Shown piece after piece: positions 2,310 through 9,622 of a stretch of DNA of 19,496 nt (the first letter of the stretch is position 1; each line of letters begins with the position of its first letter). The position numbers were made by a program, and so were the translations under genes. Location: the IMG/VR virus record IMGVR_UViG_2671181134_000003; one strand, 5' to 3'. The notes beneath the pieces are model-generated. The model saw nothing but the letters and a program-made list of their open reading frames with translations, searched no databases and had not been told where the DNA came from. This DNA is from a virus (taxonomy: Duplodnaviria > Heunggongvirae > Uroviricota > Caudoviricetes).

Positions 2310-2779
2310 ACATAAACCGAATGCTTTCCGCGTTTATCGTTATTCTGCTGGTGGCCTGTGGAGCGATGTGGATGGCAACAGACCATTACCGTGATAACGC
2401 GATTACCTACAAAGCGCAGCGCGATAACAAAGCCAGTGAACTGAAGCTGGCGAACGCAACCATTACTGATATGCAGGTGCGCCAGCGCGATGTTGCTGCG
2501 CTCGATGCAAAATACTCGAGGGAATTAGCCGATGCGAGAGCTGAAAATGAAACTCTTCGCGCTGACGTTGCCGCTGGTCGTAAGCGCCTGCGGATCAACG
2601 CCACCTGTCCAGGCTCCGTGCGTGAAGCCCCCACCACCTCCGGCGTGGATAATGCAACCGGCCCCAGACTGGCAGACGCCGCTGAACGGGATTATTTCAT
2701 CCTCAGAGAACGGTTGATGACAATGCAGAAGCAGCTGGAAGGGGCACAGCTATACATTCGTGAGCAATGCCTCAGATAA
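2306..2779 (+). CDS. Rz: i-spanin (Rz), inner-membrane spanin subunit
   Basis: N-terminal TM segment followed by [14 protein letters not shown]...[11 protein letters not shown]...QKQLEG, closely matching lambda Rz as I recall it. Start is either GTG 2306 (coupled to the preceding stop) or ATG 2321. Stop TAA 2777-2779. Confidence 0.88.
2532..2717 (+). CDS. Rz1: o-spanin (Rz1), outer-membrane lipoprotein, nested in the +1 frame inside Rz
   Basis: 61-aa ORF entirely inside Rz in a different frame. Lipobox-like LVVSAC followed by a proline-rich stretch ([27 protein letters not shown]) that is near-identical to lambda Rz1. SD GAGGGA sits 8 nt upstream of ATG 2532. Confidence 0.85.
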
Positions 2780-3139
2780 AAACCGGCCAAGGATAATCCG
2801 CTGAAGATTTGCCGGTGGCTAAAGGGGCCAAGCCACCAATTTACGTAATTAGCCACAGAGATACAATATTTTAGTTTACTTATGTATTTCTGAAGCATGT
2901 CTTTGCGCAGTATCGTCGCCGTATTCCCACATGAACAGAGACCGCAGCCCTACCGGGAGACTCCTCTGCGCGAGTGTGCGGGGATAATCAAAAACGATAC
3001 ACACCGGGGTTTACCGCGTTAACGGAGCGCGGCGTTGTCCCCTCATAGTCGCCTGTCCGGTGCGATGGTGGAAGAAACCGGACTACATTGAAAATGATAA
3101 CCATTATCATTTTTGCGGGTCCTCCTGGTGGGGTGGGCC

Positions 3140-3345
3140 TGAACACGGGGCGGGCGGCGCGGAAAAAGGCGCATTTTTGTGATTTTATCGTCATCATCAT
3201 CATAATGGTAACTTATTGTTTTTAATGTGTTTAGCATTAAAAAGATGATGATTGTGGTTGATTTTTGTTCGACATCTTTATATGGCGGCATTTCTTTACA
3301 AAAAAAGAGCCACTTTTGTTCAGCGGTTTATGTGGAGGGATGTAA
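3140..3345 (+). other. candidate cos region (cosN-like GC-rich core about 3145-3162 plus AT-rich cosB-like segment with inverted repeats)
   Basis: ACGGGGCGGGCGGCGCGG at 3145-3162 resembles the lambda cosN region (ACG|GGGCGGCGACCTCGCGGG) and lies about 200 nt upstream of the terS ATG; lambda cosN is about 190 nt upstream of Nu1. The AT-rich stretch that follows has inverted TCATCATC (3191-3198) / GATGATGA (3244-3251) repeats, which could be terS binding sites. The exact nick positions cannot be set from sequence alone. Confidence 0.4.
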
Positions 3346-3822
3346 ATGGACGGCGAGCTGAAAAATATGAAGTTAAATATTAATCAACTGGCAGCCCTTT
3401 CAGGTCTGCACCGGCAGACTGTTGCCGCCAGAATGGCGGATGTTCCTCTTGCACCAGGCAGTAATGAAAAGAAAAAACTGTATCTCCTGACGGATTTGAT
3501 TATTTCGTTGCTGGAAAAACCACCGACTTCCGAAGATGAAGAGATGAACCCACATGATCGGAAGGCATGGTATCAGTCCGAGCGCGAGCGTCTTAAATTT
3601 CAGCATGAAACTGTTCAGCTTGTGCCTGTCAGTGATGTCAGGCGGTCCTTTTCTGTCGTGGTGAAAGCGATAGTTCAGGTACTGGAAACCTGGCCTGACC
3701 GGCTGGAAAGGGACAGAGGGTGGACCGCATCACAACTGAATGAAGTACAGATTGTGGTTGATGAGATCCGCGACACACTGGAAAAGGCAGTCATTGACTG
3801 TTGTGATGAGGCCGATATGTGA
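3346..3822 (+). CDS. Nu1: terminase small subunit (Nu1-like, N-terminal HTH)
   Basis: SD GGAGGG (3334-3339) with a 6-nt spacer before ATG 3346. N-terminus (KLNINQLAALSGLHRQTVAARMADVPL) resembles lambda Nu1 (MEVNKKQLADIFGASIRTIQNWQ...). Sits immediately upstream of terL with a start/stop overlap. Confidence 0.8.
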   Translation: MDGELKNMKLNINQLAALSGLHRQTVAARMADVPLAPGSNEKKKLYLLTDLIISLLEKPPTSEDEEMNPHDRKAWYQSERERLKFQHETVQLVPVSDVRRSFSVVVKAIVQVLETWPDRLERDRGWTASQLNEVQIVVDEIRDTLEKAVIDCCDEADM

Positions 3823-5942
3823 ATCAGGTGAACGAGAGCCATAGCCGCGCATCCGATATCTGGCGCGAAGTGGCCTCGCTGTTTCGCCCACCTGGCCGGT
3901 TACCAGTAGCGGAAGCCATCAGGCGTTATATGCGGGTACCACGGGGAGCCAATACTTCCGGTCCGTGGGAGTCATCGCTGACGCCCTATATGATTGACCC
4001 CATTAATACATTATCAGCCCGTGAATATGACGCGGTGGTGTTTGTGGGACCTGCGCGAACCGGGAAAACCGAAGGGCTGATTGACGGCTGGATTGTGTAC
4101 GGCATCATCTGTGATCCGGCGGATATGCTGGTGGTGCAAATGACCGAGACGAAGGCGCGGGAACACTCCAGAACGCGTCTTTCCAGAACGTTTCGTCACA
4201 GCCCGGAGGTCAGTAAGCGTCTCAGTCCTTCCCGTAATGACAACAACGTCCACGATAAAATGTTTCTTGACGGCTCCTTCCTGAAGATTGGCTGGCCGTC
4301 GATCACTGTATTTTCTTCTTCGGATTACCGTCGTGTGGCGCTGACGGATTATGACCGTTTCCCTGAAAACGTGGACGGGGAAGGGGATGCCTTCACCCTG
4401 GCATCAAAGCGTACCACCACCTTTATGTCCTCGGGGATGACCCTGGTCGAGAGTTCGCCGGGGCGGGATATCACTGACACCAAATGGCGCTGTGGCGGCG
4501 CACATGAGGCACCGCCAACAACGGGGATCCTGTCACTGTATAACCGGGGAGACCGCCGCCGGTGGTACTGGCCGTGTCCGCACTGCGGGGAATATTTTCA
4601 GCCGGTGATGGATAACATGACCGGATACCGGAATAACCCGGATTTTGTGGCTGCCGGTCAGGCTGCCCGTCTGATGTGTCCGCATTGTCGCGGGCTGATT
4701 GCCCCTGAGCAGAAACGCGAACTGAATAACAAAGGGATCTGGCTTCGTGAAGGTGAACGGGCGGTGGCGGACGGCAGTATCACCGGAACGCCACGAAATT
4801 CCCGGATTGCGTCATTCTGGATGGAGGGGCCGGCCGCGGCGTTTCAGACCTGGGAACAACTGATTTTTAAACTGCTGGCGGCAGAAGAAGAGTATGAGCG
4901 AACCGGCAGTGAAGAGACCCTGAAAGCGGTGGTGAACACCGATATCGGACGCCCCTATCTGCCCCGTTCAGCCACGGAACAGCGTAAAAGTGAACTGCTT
5001 GAACAGCGTGCCGAGCCGTTTCCCCGGCGATCTGTGCCGGATGGTGTGCGTTTTATTGAGGCAACGGTTGACGTACAGGGCGGTAAAAATCGCCGTTTTG
5101 TTGTGCAGATCACCGGATACGGAGAGCAGGGGGAACGCTGGATTGTTGATCGCTATAACATCCGGCATTCACTGCGCTGCAGTCCCAACGGTGAAAGTCT
5201 GCCGGTTGATCCGGCGGCATATCCGGAGGACTGGGATTTGTTGCTGACGGATGTGTTCCATAAAACATGGCCGCTGGCTTCTGATCCGGATGTGCGCATG
5301 CGTCTGATGGCCATGGCGGTGGATACGGGAGGGGAAGCCGGGGTGACAGATAACGCCTATCGTTTCTGGCGTCGTTGCCGGAGTGACGGACTGGGCAACA
5401 GGGTGTTTCTGTTCAAGGGGGATGGTCTTCGCCGTGACAGGCTGATTAACCGTACCTTCCCGGATAATACCGGCAGAAGTGCCCGCCGTGCCAGAGCCAG
5501 TGGCGATGTCGCGCTGTGGCTGGTTCAGACGGATGCGTTTAAGGACCGTGTAAATAATGCCCTGTGGCGTGACACACCAGGGCCGAACTATATCCACTTT
5601 CCCGACTGGCTGGGGCGGTGGTTTTACGATGAGCTGACCTATGAAGAGCGCGGCAGTGACGGAAAATGGCGAAAACCGGGCAGGGGCGCTAACGAGGCGT
5701 TTGACCTGCTGGTTTATGCGGATGCGCTTGCCGTTCTGCATGGTTACGAAAAGATCCGCTGGCCCTCCGCACCGGACTGGGCACAGCGGGAAACGTGGCT
5801 CGTCTTCCCGCAGGAGCGTTCTGGTGAAACGGTATCCCCGGAACTGACGGCCGGGGCAGAAAAACGCCGTCGCCGGAAGAAAAAACTGCGGACGGAGCGT
5901 GCGGAAGATAATCCATGGATAACATCAGGAGGCTGGTTGTGA
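3819..5942 (+). CDS. A: terminase large subunit (lambda gpA family)
   Basis: 707-aa ORF with a Walker A-like GPARTGKT motif, a conserved SLFRP N-terminal motif and a CPHCGEYF zinc-finger-like motif as in lambda gpA (CPHCGEE). GTG start at 3819 overlaps the terS stop. Stop TGA 5940-5942. Confidence 0.95.
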   Translation: MNQVNESHSRASDIWREVASLFRPPGRLPVAEAIRRYMRVPRGANTSGPWESSLTPYMIDPINTLSAREYDAVVFVGPARTGKTEGLIDGWIVYGIICDPADMLVVQMTETKAREHSRTRLSRTFRHSPEVSKRLSPSRNDNNVHDKMFLDGSFLKIGWPSITVFSSSDYRRVALTDYDRFPENVDGEGDAFTLASKRTTTFMSSGMTLVESSPGRDITDTKWRCGGAHEAPPTTGILSLYNRGDRRRWYWPCPHCGEYFQPVMDNMTGYRNNPDFVAAGQAARLMCPHCRGLIAPEQKRELNNKGIWLREGERAVADGSITGTPRNSRIASFWMEGPAAAFQTWEQLIFKLLAAEEEYERTGSEETLKAVVNTDIGRPYLPRSATEQRKSELLEQRAEPFPRRSVPDGVRFIEATVDVQGGKNRRFVVQITGYGEQGERWIVDRYNIRHSLRCSPNGESLPVDPAAYPEDWDLLLTDVFHKTWPLASDPDVRMRLMAMAVDTGGEAGVTDNAYRFWRRCRSDGLGNRVFLFKGDGLRRDRLINRTFPDNTGRSARRARASGDVALWLVQTDAFKDRVNNALWRDTPGPNYIHFPDWLGRWFYDELTYEERGSDGKWRKPGRGANEAFDLLVYADALAVLHGYEKIRWPSAPDWAQRETWLVFPQERSGETVSPELTAGAEKRRRRKKKLRTERAEDNPWITSGGWL

Positions 5943-6151
5943 GCACAGAAGAAGCCAGAGAAATGATACAGCGGTACCGTGAAGCGGAAATGGCCGTACT
6001 GGAGGGGAAGTCTGTCACCTTCAACGGGCAGCAACTGACGCTGGAAAGCCTTTCTCAGATCCGCGCCGGACGTCAGGAGTGGGAACGCAGGCTTGCCGCG
6101 ATGGTGAGCCGCAGGCGGGGAAAACCAGGATTTAAACTGGCGAGGTTTTAA
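5939..6151 (+). CDS. W: head-tail joining / head completion protein W-like
   Basis: About 70 aa, placed between terL and portal as lambda W is, with a basic RRRGKPGF C-terminus like lambda W (RRRGPAGF). Preferred start is GTG 5939, with AGGAGG at 5927-5932 and a 6-nt spacer, overlapping the terL stop (GTGA). The in-frame ATG at 5915 is an alternative. Confidence 0.7.
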   Translation: MSTEEAREMIQRYREAEMAVLEGKSVTFNGQQLTLESLSQIRAGRQEWERRLAAMVSRRRGKPGFKLARF

Positions 6152-7653
6152 TGGCAATTATTGATGATGTGATAGGCGTGTTTTCCCCCGGGTGGAAAGC
6201 AGCCAGACTGCGTTCAAGGGCGTTAATCATGGCCTATGAGGCGGTGAAACCGACCCGGACACATAAAGCCCGGCGGGAAAATCGCTCTGCCGATCAGCTC
6301 AGTAAATACGGTGCGGTTTCCCTGCGGGAGCAGGCCCGTTTTCTTGATATCAATCATGACCTGGTGATTGGTGTGTTTGACAAGCTGGAAGAGCGGGTGA
6401 TTGGTGCCAGGGGAATTATTGTGGAGCCTCAGCCATTACGAAAAAACGGGGAAATGGCGGCTGAGCTGGCTGCGGATATCCGCCGGTTGTGGGCTGAATG
6501 GTCCGTGAGTCCGGATGTGACAGGGCAGTATACCCGTCCCGTGCTTGAACGTTTACTGCTGCGGACCTGGCTGCGGGATGGTGAAGTGTTTGCGCAGATG
6601 GTCAGTGGTGCGGGAAACGGTCTGGAACGGACGGCGGGAGTGCCATTCTGGCTTGAGGCGATGGAGCCGGATTTTGTTCCCATGCGCACTGATGAATCCG
6701 CCGGGCTGAATCAGGGGGTTTTTCTTGATGAGTGGGGAAGACCGAAAAAATATCTGGTTTATAAAAATTATCCGGTCAGCGGTCGGCAGAGTGATACGAA
6801 AGAAATCGCTGCCGGAAAAATGATCCACCTGAAGTTCATACGCCGTCTGCATCAGACGCGAGGCTCATCCATGTTATCGGGGGTGCTGATGCGGATCAGT
6901 GCCCTTAAGGAATATGAGGATGCGGAACTGACGGCTGCGCGTATTGCCGCGGCGCTGGGACTGTATATCCGTAAAGGGGACGGACAGGACTATGAAGATC
7001 CGGGGATCAAAGATACCAACCGGGAAGTCCATATCACCCCGGGTATTATTTATGACGATTTGCGCAAGGGCGAGGATATCGGCATGGTCAAATCTGACCG
7101 TCCCAATCCCAACCTTGAAACTTTCCGCAACGGCCAGTTGCGTGCAGTGGCAGCAGGCAGTCGTCTGAGTTTTTCCAGTGCGGCGCGTAACTATAACGGC
7201 ACCTACAGCGCCCAGCGGCAGGAGCTGGTCGAGTCCACGGATGGTTACCTGATCCTGCAGGACTGTTTTATTGGCGCGGTAACCCGCCCGGTGTACCGGA
7301 CATGGCTGAATATGGTGGTTGCGGCAGGTCTGCTGAAAATTCCGGCGGATGTGGAGATGAAAACGCTATATAACGCGACGTATTCCGGTCCGGTGATGCC
7401 GTGGATCGACCCGGTTAAGGAAGCTGAAGCCTGGAGAATTCAGATCCGGGGTGGTGCAGCGACAGAATCTGACTGGGTGCGTGCCGGTGGGCGCAATCCG
7501 GATGAGGTCAAACGTCGCCGCAAGGCTGAAATTGATGAAAACAGCAGACTGGGGCTGGTCTTTGATACTGACCCCGTCAACGACAAAGGAGGCAACAGTG
7601 CCGGAACTGAACGACAGTATCAGCGCGACACCGAAAGCCAGCATGAAGAATAA
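6151..7653 (+). CDS. B: portal protein (lambda gpB-like)
   Basis: 500-aa ORF directly after W, with a TAATG stop/start overlap at 6149-6153. Size and position match the lambda portal gpB (533 aa). Assigned by synteny and size; no specific motif was checked. Confidence 0.9.
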   Translation: MAIIDDVIGVFSPGWKAARLRSRALIMAYEAVKPTRTHKARRENRSADQLSKYGAVSLREQARFLDINHDLVIGVFDKLEERVIGARGIIVEPQPLRKNGEMAAELAADIRRLWAEWSVSPDVTGQYTRPVLERLLLRTWLRDGEVFAQMVSGAGNGLERTAGVPFWLEAMEPDFVPMRTDESAGLNQGVFLDEWGRPKKYLVYKNYPVSGRQSDTKEIAAGKMIHLKFIRRLHQTRGSSMLSGVLMRISALKEYEDAELTAARIAAALGLYIRKGDGQDYEDPGIKDTNREVHITPGIIYDDLRKGEDIGMVKSDRPNPNLETFRNGQLRAVAAGSRLSFSSAARNYNGTYSAQRQELVESTDGYLILQDCFIGAVTRPVYRTWLNMVVAAGLLKIPADVEMKTLYNATYSGPVMPWIDPVKEAEAWRIQIRGGAATESDWVRAGGRNPDEVKRRRKAEIDENSRLGLVFDTDPVNDKGGNSAGTERQYQRDTESQHEE

Positions 7654-9622
7654 ATCCTGGTTCAGGATGCAGGCTGGGGGGCCGGGTGACGCGGATATTT
7701 ATATTTATGACGAGATTGGTTTCTGGGGAGTTACCGCGAAGCAGTTTGTCAGCGAACTGAATGCACTGGGTGATATCACCCACATTAATCTCCATATCAA
7801 TTCACCGGGTGGCGATGTCTTTGAAGGCATCGCCATTTTTAATGCCCTGAAAAATCAGGGGGCGACCATTACCGTGTATGTGGATGGCGTTGCCGCCTCG
7901 ATGGCATCTGTGATTGCGATGGCCGGTGATACGGTCATTATGCCGGAAAATGCCTTCATGATGATCCATAAGCCATGGGGATTCAGTGGCGGGGATGCTG
8001 AGGATATGCGCAGTTATGCCGATTTGCTGGATAAAGTCGAATCGGTACTGTTGCCAGCCTATGCGCAGAAAACCGGAAAAACCACCGATGAAATTGCCGC
8101 CATGCTGGCGGATGAAACCTGGATGTCCGGTGCCGAATGTCTGGCACACGGATTTGCTGACCAGGTGACACCCGCTGTTGAGGCAATGGCATGTATTCAG
8201 TCAAAACGTACAGAGGAATTTAAAAAGATGCCGGAATCCATCCGAAACATGATTACTCCGCCACGCAACAGTGCCCCGCGTGATACCACAGTGATAATCC
8301 CTGCACCGGCGGTAACAGAACCATCACCGGTACCGGCAGTGTCTGATGAGGCGACCATTCGCGCCCGCGTTATGGCAGAACAGAAAGCCCGCATGTCAGG
8401 CATTAACGATCTGTTTGCCATGTTCGGCGGTCGCTATCAGACGCTTCAGGCACAGTGCGTGGCTGATCCTGACTGTTCGCTGGAAATGGCCCGTGAACGT
8501 CTGCTGAATGAAATGGGCAAGGAGTCCTCGCCGACCAACAAAAACACACCGGCTCATATTTATGCCGGAAACGGCAATTTTGTGGGAGACGGGATCCGCC
8601 AGGCGATGCTGGCCCGTGCCGGATTTGAAAATGTCGAGAAGGATAACGCCTATAACGGGATGACCCTGCGTGAATGGGCTCGTATGTCACTGACGGAGCG
8701 CGGTATTGGGGTGGCCAGTTATAACCCCATGCAGATGGTCGGGCTGGCGCTGACGCACAGCACCTCTGATTTTGGCAATATCCTGCTGGATGTGTCGAAC
8801 AAGGGGCTGATCCAGGGCTGGGAGGAATCAGAAGAAACCTTCCAGAAGTGGACCCGTAAGGGACGCCTGTCAGACTTCAAAACAGCGTATCGCGTGGGGA
8901 TGGGCGGTTTTGGTTCTCTGCGCCAGGTTCGTGAGGGGGCGGAGTATAAATACATCACCACCTCAGATCGCAAGGAGACCATTGCTCTGGCCACCTACGG
9001 GGAGATTTTCTCCATCACCCGCCAGGCCATTATCAATGATGATCTGAATATGCTGGTGGACGTGCCGATGAAGATGGGGCGTGCGGCGAAGGCAACGATT
9101 GGTGACCTGGTTTACAAGGTGCTGACGGATAACCCGAAACTGTCCGACGGTAAGGCGCTGTTCCATGCCGATCACAAAAATATTGCCACCGGGGGGATCT
9201 CCGTTTCCGGACTGGATGCGGCCCGTCAGATGATGCGCCTGCAGAAAGAAGGCGATCGCGCCCTGAATATCCGTCCGGCCTTTATGCTGGTACCGGTGGC
9301 ACTGGAGACGGTGGCGAACCAGACCATCAAATCGGCCAGTGTGAAAGGGGCGGATGCAAACGCCGGTGTCATTAACCCTATCCAGAACTTTGCTGAGGTG
9401 ATTGCGGAAGCGCGTCTTGATGCGGCAGATCCGAAAACCTGGTATCTGGCGGCGGCACAGGGCACTGACACCATTGAAGTGGCCTGGCTGGATGGTGTGG
9501 ACACGCCATACATTGATCAGCAGGAAGGTTTCACCACTGACGGCATTGCCACAAAAATTCGTATTGATGCCGGTGTGGCACCACTTGACTGGCGCGGTCT
9601 GGTGCGTTCGTCGGTGGCCTGA
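7598..9622 (+). CDS. fused prohead protease (ClpP/S14-like) and major capsid protein
   Basis: N-terminal part has ClpP-like motifs (GVAASMASVIAMAGD with a candidate catalytic Ser; MMIHKPWG with a candidate His). C-terminal about 330 aa occupies the major-capsid position. Start set at GTG 7598 (AAGGAGG at 7586-7592, 5-nt spacer) rather than the ORF-track start 7451, which lies inside the portal gene; ATG 7643 is an alternative. Confidence 0.8.
   Translation: MPELNDSISATPKASMKNKSWFRMQAGGPGDADIYIYDEIGFWGVTAKQFVSELNALGDITHINLHINSPGGDVFEGIAIFNALKNQGATITVYVDGVAASMASVIAMAGDTVIMPENAFMMIHKPWGFSGGDAEDMRSYADLLDKVESVLLPAYAQKTGKTTDEIAAMLADETWMSGAECLAHGFADQVTPAVEAMACIQSKRTEEFKKMPESIRNMITPPRNSAPRDTTVIIPAPAVTEPSPVPAVSDEATIRARVMAEQKARMSGINDLFAMFGGRYQTLQAQCVADPDCSLEMARERLLNEMGKESSPTNKNTPAHIYAGNGNFVGDGIRQAMLARAGFENVEKDNAYNGMTLREWARMSLTERGIGVASYNPMQMVGLALTHSTSDFGNILLDVSNKGLIQGWEESEETFQKWTRKGRLSDFKTAYRVGMGGFGSLRQVREGAEYKYITTSDRKETIALATYGEIFSITRQAIINDDLNMLVDVPMKMGRAAKATIGDLVYKVLTDNPKLSDGKALFHADHKNIATGGISVSGLDAARQMMRLQKEGDRALNIRPAFMLVPVALETVANQTIKSASVKGADANAGVINPIQNFAEVIAEARLDAADPKTWYLAAAQGTDTIEVAWLDGVDTPYIDQQEGFTTDGIATKIRIDAGVAPLDWRGLVRSSVA

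Follow-up and report, generated by a model that had tools for sequence, protein, structure and literature searches.

We analysed a window of 19,496 nucleotides, that is, the whole stretch of phage DNA presented above at its full length, which holds the late region of a lambdoid prophage. A gap of 566 bp lies between Rz and terS; in RefSeq the gap carries no annotation and terS is labelled just 'DUF1441 family protein'. The genes on the two sides of the gap are as follows.

1291-1824: lysozyme
2306-2779: Rz
3346-3822, plus strand: terS, small terminase subunit of the DUF1441 type, 158 aa, ATG at 3346 (Pfam DUF1441, E = 6.5e-49)
3819-5942, plus strand: terL, large terminase subunit of the lambda gpA type, 707 aa (Pfam GpA_ATPase 2.3e-81, GpA_nuclease 6.2e-84)
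6151-7653: portal, lambda family
7451-9622: fused ClpP-protease/capsid protein

The searches returned no Rfam family within 2600-3500 and no Pfam family for the small ORFs in 2790-3225. Within the gap, 2904-3123 is a module common to more than 100 records of Stx1a, Stx2 and other lambdoid phages at 90-95% identity, including phages with differing terS genes, and the records of vB_EcoS-569R3 and vB_EcoS-705R7 annotate a DUF3950 protein over the part that corresponds to window 2904-3089. Further downstream, 7451-9622 forms one ORF of 723 aa with a ClpP-type prohead protease domain (residues 95-240) and a major capsid protein domain (residues 429-720). A protease/capsid fusion of the same kind is found in Gifsy-2 (PMC12315714).

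To judge from its sequence, TerL is unambiguously of the gpA type. TerS matched PHROG 141, 'terminase small subunit', at E = 5.6e-65 with a cross-match to PHROG 57 at 5.1e-10, and lambda Nu1 matched 57 at 1.3e-76 and 141 at 5.6e-08. The TerS and Nu1 families were co-linear over 140 columns in hhalign (E = 0.028), and TerS gave no match to Pfam Phage_Nu1 and no significant match in the PDB. The AlphaFold model of TerS (mean pLDDT 79) showed an N-terminal strand-helix-helix-wing-helix followed by long helices. Its best Foldseek matches, all of them non-significant, were winged-HTH proteins, namely PadR-family and MerR-family members (BmrR, MtaN, BrlR) and chains of 6HN7 and 6HLK, which by entry title concern E. 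coli pathogenicity islands redirecting helper-phage packaging. On these comparisons TerS is better called a remote homologue of Nu1 than a member of the Nu1 family.

Upstream of terS we found the following candidate sub-sites, with slashes marking nick positions (those of the window are predicted).

3117-3123, plus strand: cosQ, packaging-termination element, GGGTCCT, an exact match to lambda 48473-48479 (J02459)
3146-3161, plus strand: cosN core, CG/GGGCGGGCGGCG/CG, aligned with lambda, cdtI and LLS
3163-3189, plus strand: I2-like spacer with phased A/T tracts, AAAAAGGCGCATTTTTGTGATTTTATC, at the position of lambda I2 (bp ~18-50)
3190-3203, plus strand: R3-like putative TerS-binding repeat, GTCATCATCATCAT, +43 to +56 from the nick, fitting TCRWCAYC
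3209-3224, minus strand: predicted I1-like IHF site, TAACTTATTGTTTTTA, 15/16 bases identical to lambda TAACTTAATGTTTTTA at +74
3243-3253, minus strand: R2-like repeat, inverted, AGATGATGATT (reverse complement AATCATCATCT), with a 9-nt perfect complement of R3
3262-3276, plus strand: conserved T-tract and R1-like repeat, TTTTTGTTCGACATC, with the R1 core TTCGACATC at 3268-3276 and GTTC..CA invariant in nine lineages

GGGTCCT is the cosQ of lambda, and in the window it begins 31 bp ahead of the predicted nick, compared with 30 bp in lambda. The 7-bp cosQ is highly conserved (PMC4669245). The lambda junction, read across the right and left ends of J02459, is ...GATGATAATCATTATCACTTTAC GGGTCCT TTCCGGTGATCCGACAGGTTACG/GGGCGGCGACCT/CGCGGGTTTTCGC..., and set beside it the window reads ...GAAAATGATAACCATTATCATTTTTGC GGGTCCT CCTGGTGGGGTGGGCCTGAACACG/GGGCGGGCGGCG/CGGAAAAAGGCGC.... 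At cosN, the alignment placed the window with lambda ACG/GGGCGGCGACCT/CGCGGG, cdtI CACG/GGGCGGGAGCGT/CGCGG and LLS CACG/GGGCGGCGCGCT/CGCGGG. We infer a top-strand nick between 3147 and 3148, and the bottom-strand nick most likely falls opposite 3159/3160, which would leave the 12-nt 5' end GGGCGGGCGGCG (3148-3159). Two-fold symmetry across this core was 10/16 (CG/GGGCGG GCGGCG/CG at 3146-3161), with the CG flanks and the symmetry as in lambda. The GC content was 0.72 at cosN and dropped to 0.22-0.36 in cosB. The composite pattern GGGTCCT-N(18-28)-CGGGGCGG had a single occurrence in the window, at 3117-3153, and none in 200 dinucleotide shuffles.

An earlier note on this DNA had described a GC-rich element resembling lambda cosN without being identical to it, lying at the lambda spacing from terS, and had proposed an alignment with the lambda cos region. 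The element ACGGGGCGGGCGGCGCGG is indeed at 3145-3162, its left half equal to lambda and its right half different at 5/6 positions; terS starts 198 nt past the predicted nick versus 190 in lambda; and the alignment gave co-linear homology over cosQ, cosN and I1. The note was right to place a cos here, but its start at 3140 has to be moved, as cosQ (3117-3123) sits further upstream.

Downstream of cosN, the A/T tracts of the I2-like spacer were located at 3163-3167, 3173-3177 and 3183-3186, with a spacing of ~10 bp. In lambda, I2 is an essential static bend (PMC4856287). The region beyond the spacer appears to hold the complex cosB layout R3-I1-R2-R1, with R2 inverted, the orientation of R1 equal to that of R3 and the predicted IHF site between R3 and the inverted R2, all as in lambda. 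On the minus strand, AAACAATAAGTTA (3209-3221) fits the IHF consensus WATCAANNNNTTR with one mismatch. A repeat search showed a perfect 9-nt inverted repeat, 3193-3201 with 3244-3252, within 21-nt arms that are 81% complementary; the inverted pair seen earlier, TCATCATC at 3191-3198 and GATGATGA at 3244-3251, is present in both members. A perfect inverted repeat of 9 nt was reached in 67 of 1000 dinucleotide shuffles of the AT-rich 183-bp stretch, a borderline result, so that its significance rests on conservation in other phages. The consensus of R1-R3, TCRWCAYC, had 5 of its 14 matches in the whole 19.5-kb window within 3188-3276, a count that is descriptive because the pattern was partly derived from the same region. 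The TTTTGT motifs that the earlier note put forward as plausible R sites do occur, at 3174-3179, 3263-3268 and 3314-3319, but we rejected them in that role: two are conserved T-tracts (in the I2 spacer and in the run before R1) and the copy at 3314-3319 is lineage-specific. The real third repeat would instead be TTCGACATC at 3268-3276.

We gathered ~200 related cos loci from IMG/VR scans and phage records. One cosQ-cosN module was found ahead of several terS types (DUF1441 variants, cdtI-type, Nu1/21-type and N15-like), and the downstream sequence was type-specific. Nine diverged lineages of the DUF1441 type were then aligned: the window, VT1-Sakai, Fels-1, CP-1639, mEp460, PhiR40_1, Gifsy-2, LLS and L115. 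The conserved blocks in these nine lineages were cosQ, CACGGGGCGG...CGCGG, GGC...TTTTT, CATCAYCA, TTGWT, TG..GA and TTTTTTGTTC..CA. The GGC...TTTTT block of the I2-like spacer and the TG..GA core of R2 were invariant throughout, and the CATCAYCA block stood at the equivalent place in Fels-1, CP-1639, mEp460, PhiR40_1, LLS and L115. Identity to the window, given as the mean of seven other lineages, was 0.92 for cosQ, 0.69 for the I2-like spacer, 0.74 for R3, 0.62 for I1, 0.60 for R2 and 0.80 for the T-tract with R1. For the R3-I1 gap it was 0.29, for the I1-R2 spacer 0.34, for the R2-R1 spacer 0.50 and for the stretch from R1 to terS 0.23. The sub-site blocks are conserved in diverged lineages and the spacers between them are not.

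The R2 and R1 words themselves were lineage-specific: PhiR40_1 has ATGTCGAA and TTCGACAT, whereas the window has AGATGATGA and TTCGACATC. Within a lineage, the R2 of PhiR40_1 (ATGTCGAA) is the exact complement of its own R1 (TTCGACAT), and the R2 of Gifsy-2 (AGTGTCGAA) is likewise the exact complement of its R1 (TTCGACACT). Fels-1 is arranged as the window is, with CATCATCATCAT, then AGATGATGATT, then GTTCATCATCTT, and carries three CATCATC-type repeats like it. Compared with the DUF1441-terS lambdoid phages cdtI (AB285204), mEp213/LLS (PQ299149), mEp460, Fels-1, Gifsy-2 and VT1-Sakai, the window shares the terS family (37-97% identity), cosQ, the left half-site, the GGC...TTTTT block of I2, the CATCAYCA of R3, the TTGWT core of I1, the TG..GA of R2 and the TTTTTTGTTC..CA of R1. 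The spacer between CACG and CGCGG differs among them, being 10 nt in the window, 11 in VT1-Sakai, 12 in cdtI, mEp460, LLS and Fels-1, and 14 in Gifsy-2.

The ends of database records gave further information on the nick. The records of cdtI (AB285204) and LLS (PQ299149), whose terS products are 37-49% identical to that of the window, open exactly at the homologous G. The cdtI record, which is circular, opens with GGGCGGGAGCGT and closes with the ...CCACG that directly precedes it. In the LLS record, positions 1-12 carry the feature '5' extended single-strand cohesive site GGGCGGCGCGCT', which is an annotated 12-nt 5' cohesive end; according to its authors, this end was deduced by homology with the mEp213 site, on an analysis by M. 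Feiss, and not by mapping (PMC12315714). For mEp460, mEp213 and Ayreon the authors chose terS as the starting point of the record, and these records are uninformative on ends. Among phage records, IMG/VR and metagenome contigs, none ended at the predicted nick of the window, and one, IMGVR_UViG_2703719349_000003 (L080), fell one base short. Literature searches for end sequences and end-mapping of Stx-type cos phages returned nothing for the cosN of the window.

We also observed three irregular record ends or gaps near cosN. L080 is a draft contig from an isolate assembly that ends ...GGGCCTGAACAC (...GAACAC), one base before the predicted top-strand nick; reads from the ends of phage DNA could account for this, as could a break of the assembly at the border of a repeat. 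The linear record of mEp460_4F5 (LR595868.1; L005/L006) begins 5 nt to the left of the predicted nick, with CCACGGGGCGGGAGCGCGG, and its cosN is 3 nt shorter than that of mEp460 (JQ182728), which may be an assembly artefact at cos. ASU11 (ON416862.2; L013), recovered after mitomycin C induction, is without the 44 bp GAACACGGGGCGGGCGGCGCGGAAAAAGGCGCATTTTTTGATTT when set against CP-1639, which shares its terS type; measured from the predicted nick, the gap extends 7 bp to the left and 37 bp to the right. An assembly of virion DNA would lose sequence at its physical ends, which is the probable origin of the ASU11 gap, although we treat it only as a hint.

Taken together, the homology to the lambda cos junction, the records of relatives that start at the homologous nick and the conservation of sub-sites in nine lineages point to a cos site with a diverged cosN and a repeat-bearing cosB. 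It is very likely, on sequence grounds, that window 3117-3276 is the lambda-type cohesive-end site of a lambdoid prophage. In the definition of Feiss and colleagues, a lambda-like cos has a conserved cosQ and conserved cohesive-end bp 1-6 with bp 7-12 freely variable, CG at both nick flanks, an essential bent I2 and a cosB of the form R3-I1-R2-R1 with R2 inverted (PMC4669245, PMC4856287, PMC9026076). Also part of it are a cosQ ~30 bp upstream of the left nick, virion DNA with 12-nt 5'-protruding cohesive ends, and neighbouring terminase genes with a gpA-family large subunit. The layout found here agrees with that definition (PMC4669245, PMC9026076, PMC4856287). The sub-site set appears complete (cosQ, cosN, the I2-like spacer and R3-I1-R2-R1) and lies upstream of an intact gpA/DUF1441 terminase. 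At sequence level the window cos shows the features of the lambda-like class, its phased A/T tracts being a candidate for the bent I2, and by analogy it would work as the lambda cos does. The site is an ordinary, previously unannotated representative of a well-studied type, and mechanistically it adds nothing beyond what is known from lambda.

In its predicted construction, the cos of this prophage is built as that of lambda, with different recognition repeats. The two share the order and orientation of sub-sites, GGGTCCT, the left nick context CG/GGGCGG, the CG flanks, the 10/16 symmetry, an I1 identical at 15/16 positions, an R2 inverted against R3 and R1, a terS ~190-200 nt past the nick and a gpA-family TerL. 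They differ in the R word, which is CGTTTCC(G/T)TTCT in lambda and TCRWCAYC-like in the window, and in the small subunit, which is Pfam DUF1441 in the window and Phage_Nu1 in lambda. The sub-sites of the window are also more compact, with R3 at +43, R2 at +96 and R1 at +121, versus +53, +109 and +155 in lambda; a published position of lambda R3 is +50 to +65 (PMC9026076). The 'simple' cos of N15 shares the lambda-like cosQ and cosN and the gpA-type TerL with the window, but in N15 there is just one R3 and the IHF site is absent (PMC9026076), whereas the window has a complex three-repeat cosB with I1. Bp 7-12 of cosN vary freely, and neither the lambda terminase nor that of N15 shows specificity for cosN (PMC4669245). 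A packaging specificity different from that of lambda, which the earlier note had ascribed to a diverged cosN/cosB, is to be expected from the R words and the DUF1441-type TerS, but not from the divergence of the right half of cosN by itself.

The homologous sequence and conserved architecture described above are what the window shows; how proteins bind and bend the DNA, where the nicks fall and how long the overhang is can be carried over from lambda by analogy, and the site would then act as follows. The late transcript and the concatemeric DNA would traverse cos from left to right. TerS dimers would bind R3 (3190-3203), the inverted R2 (3243-3253) and R1 (3268-3276) through the N-terminal winged helix-turn-helix, IHF would bend the DNA at I1, between R3 and R2, and the phased A/T tracts of the I2 spacer would contribute a static bend. 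This assembly of TerS, IHF and bent DNA would anchor the gpA-type TerL on cosN, where TerL would nick the two strands in a staggered way, the top one after 3147 and the bottom one most likely opposite 3159/3160, giving 12-nt 5' cohesive ends GGGCGGGCGGCG. From there packaging would run to the right, into terS and then the genes for head and tail, and it would end at the next cos, where the final cut would require cosQ (3117-3123).

The length of the overhang was considered across 185 loci by measuring the cosN spacer, by which we mean the nucleotides enclosed by the conserved CACG and CGCGG. The spacer was 10 nt in 53 loci (GGGCGGGCGG in 46 of them, including the window), 11 nt in 47 (VT1-Sakai, GGGCGGGCGGG), 12 nt in 83 (cdtI, mEp460, LLS), 7 nt in one and 14 nt in one (Gifsy-2). 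The exact cosN variant of the window, with its 46 of 185 loci, is the second commonest, and the cosN of VT1-Sakai differs from it by one extra G. This length polymorphism is the sole mildly surprising aspect of the window cos. As the window spacer is 10 nt, a 12-nt overhang puts the right nick 2 nt inside the conserved CGCGG block. The CGCG repeat permits a register slip by two, so that the 12-nt reading retains both CG flanks and the 10/16 symmetry, compared with 8/14 for a 10-nt reading.

We consider it unlikely that the site is a functional cos with cohesive ends other than 12 nt, in which CACG/ would fix the left nick and /CGCGG the right one, each flank acting on its own, giving 10-nt ends (GGGCGGGCGG) in the window phage and 11-nt ends in VT1-Sakai-type relatives. 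Such ends are suggested by the three spacer classes themselves and by the distance from CGCGG to R3, which is 33-34 nt in both the 10-nt and 11-nt classes and so shows no compensation. The bottom-strand nick of lambda is thought to be positioned by a TerL anchored at R3 (PMC9026076), a model under which the nick-to-R3 distance, not the stagger, would be constant, and no 12-nt reading of the 11-nt variants keeps the CG flank. On the other side, lambda, 434, 21, phi80, N15 and Gifsy-1 are described with 12-nt ends (PMC4856287, PMC4669245), a fixed stagger is expected from a symmetric TerL pair, changes in the right half are known to be tolerated (PMC4669245), and the 12-nt reading of the window has the better symmetry with both CG flanks. 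A 12-nt overhang is therefore the reading that we prefer for the window, as judged from its sequence. The length polymorphism combined with nicks set by the flanks or by R3 might in turn yield near-identical phages whose cohesive ends differ in length and cannot anneal mutually, a possible but on balance improbable outcome. If true, differing end lengths would cheaply make phages incompatible in packaging or recombination, and would provide a natural experiment on the way a lambda-type terminase measures its stagger. In either case the window cos offers a test case of how strictly lambda-type terminases fix the 12-nt stagger.

The same polymorphism bears on whether the site is still functional. 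Many lambdoid prophages of E. coli are defective, the window site is 2 nt shorter than those of cdtI, mEp460 and LLS, and the locus with just 7 nt indicates that deletions do occur, which would fit a decayed, non-functional cos in a defective prophage, disabled by the 2-nt shortening of cosN relative to the cdtI type. Against this, the 10-nt form is not private to the window, as it occurs in 53 of 185 loci and in two terS/cosB types (those of the window and CP-1639); no damage is seen in cosQ, the left half-site, I2 or the R sites; and terminase, portal and capsid are encoded at full length. ASU11, of the CP-1639 terS type, was moreover recovered after mitomycin C, and the 44 bp missing around cosN in its record are as expected for virion ends there. 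Decay of the site is thus very unlikely, and we retain the reading of a lambda-type cos.

Two weak sigma-70-like matches, 3177-3206 on the plus strand and 3211-3182 on the minus strand, and a Fur-box-like palindrome just upstream are what could be said for the region being no packaging site at all, that is, a GC-rich patch and an AT-rich promoter or regulatory region of terS with a chance resemblance to lambda cos, but the promoter-like matches do not exceed the shuffle expectation (3 versus 1.3 ± 1.2), the composite cosQ-cosN pattern appeared in none of 200 shuffles, the cosQ-cosN module precedes several terS families at ~200 loci, and the lambda homology, which spans cosQ, cosN and I1, effectively refutes a promoter-only reading and leaves it next to no probability.

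The nearest phage records were Stx2- and Stx1-converting phages including VT1-Sakai, with 95-97% identity over 2904-3900, and E. coli LZSFT34 and SW070917 were 100% identical over 2780-3400. A 621-bp query (2780-3400) gave at least a partial match in 2147 of 5426 complete E. coli genomes and a match over at least 80% of the query in 381. A tblastn search with TerS found 58 phage records, of which two, cdtI and LLS, start at the homologous position. The predicted cos would mark where the genome of this prophage type ends and where its packaging begins; the type is found in ~40% of complete E. coli genomes and includes Stx1 and Stx2 converting phages. A known cos allows phage genomes to be oriented correctly and allows prediction of which terminase packages which prophages or islands.

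Two minor observations concern the borders of the site. The Fur-box-like palindrome GAAAATGATAACCATTATC lies at 3090-3108, 8 bp upstream of cosQ, with 2 mismatches to GATAATGATAATCATTATC (0.00 expected by chance), and its lambda homologue at the same place, GTAGATGATAATCATTATC, has 3 mismatches. Literature searches linking a Fur box to a cos site or to lambda returned nothing. The palindrome was present with at most 6 mismatches in 104 of 224 related cos loci; the others carry unrelated sequence there, such as a hairpin followed by a T-run, which indicates that it is dispensable for cos. We also found a direct repeat whose copies, AAAAAGGCGCATTTTTGT (3163-3180, in the I2 spacer) and AAAAAGAGCCACTTTTGT (3302-3319, immediately ahead of terS), lie 139 nt apart and share 78% identity. 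The second of them is confined to the window/VT1-Sakai lineage and coincides in part with a terminator-like hairpin of the minus strand (3326-3310).
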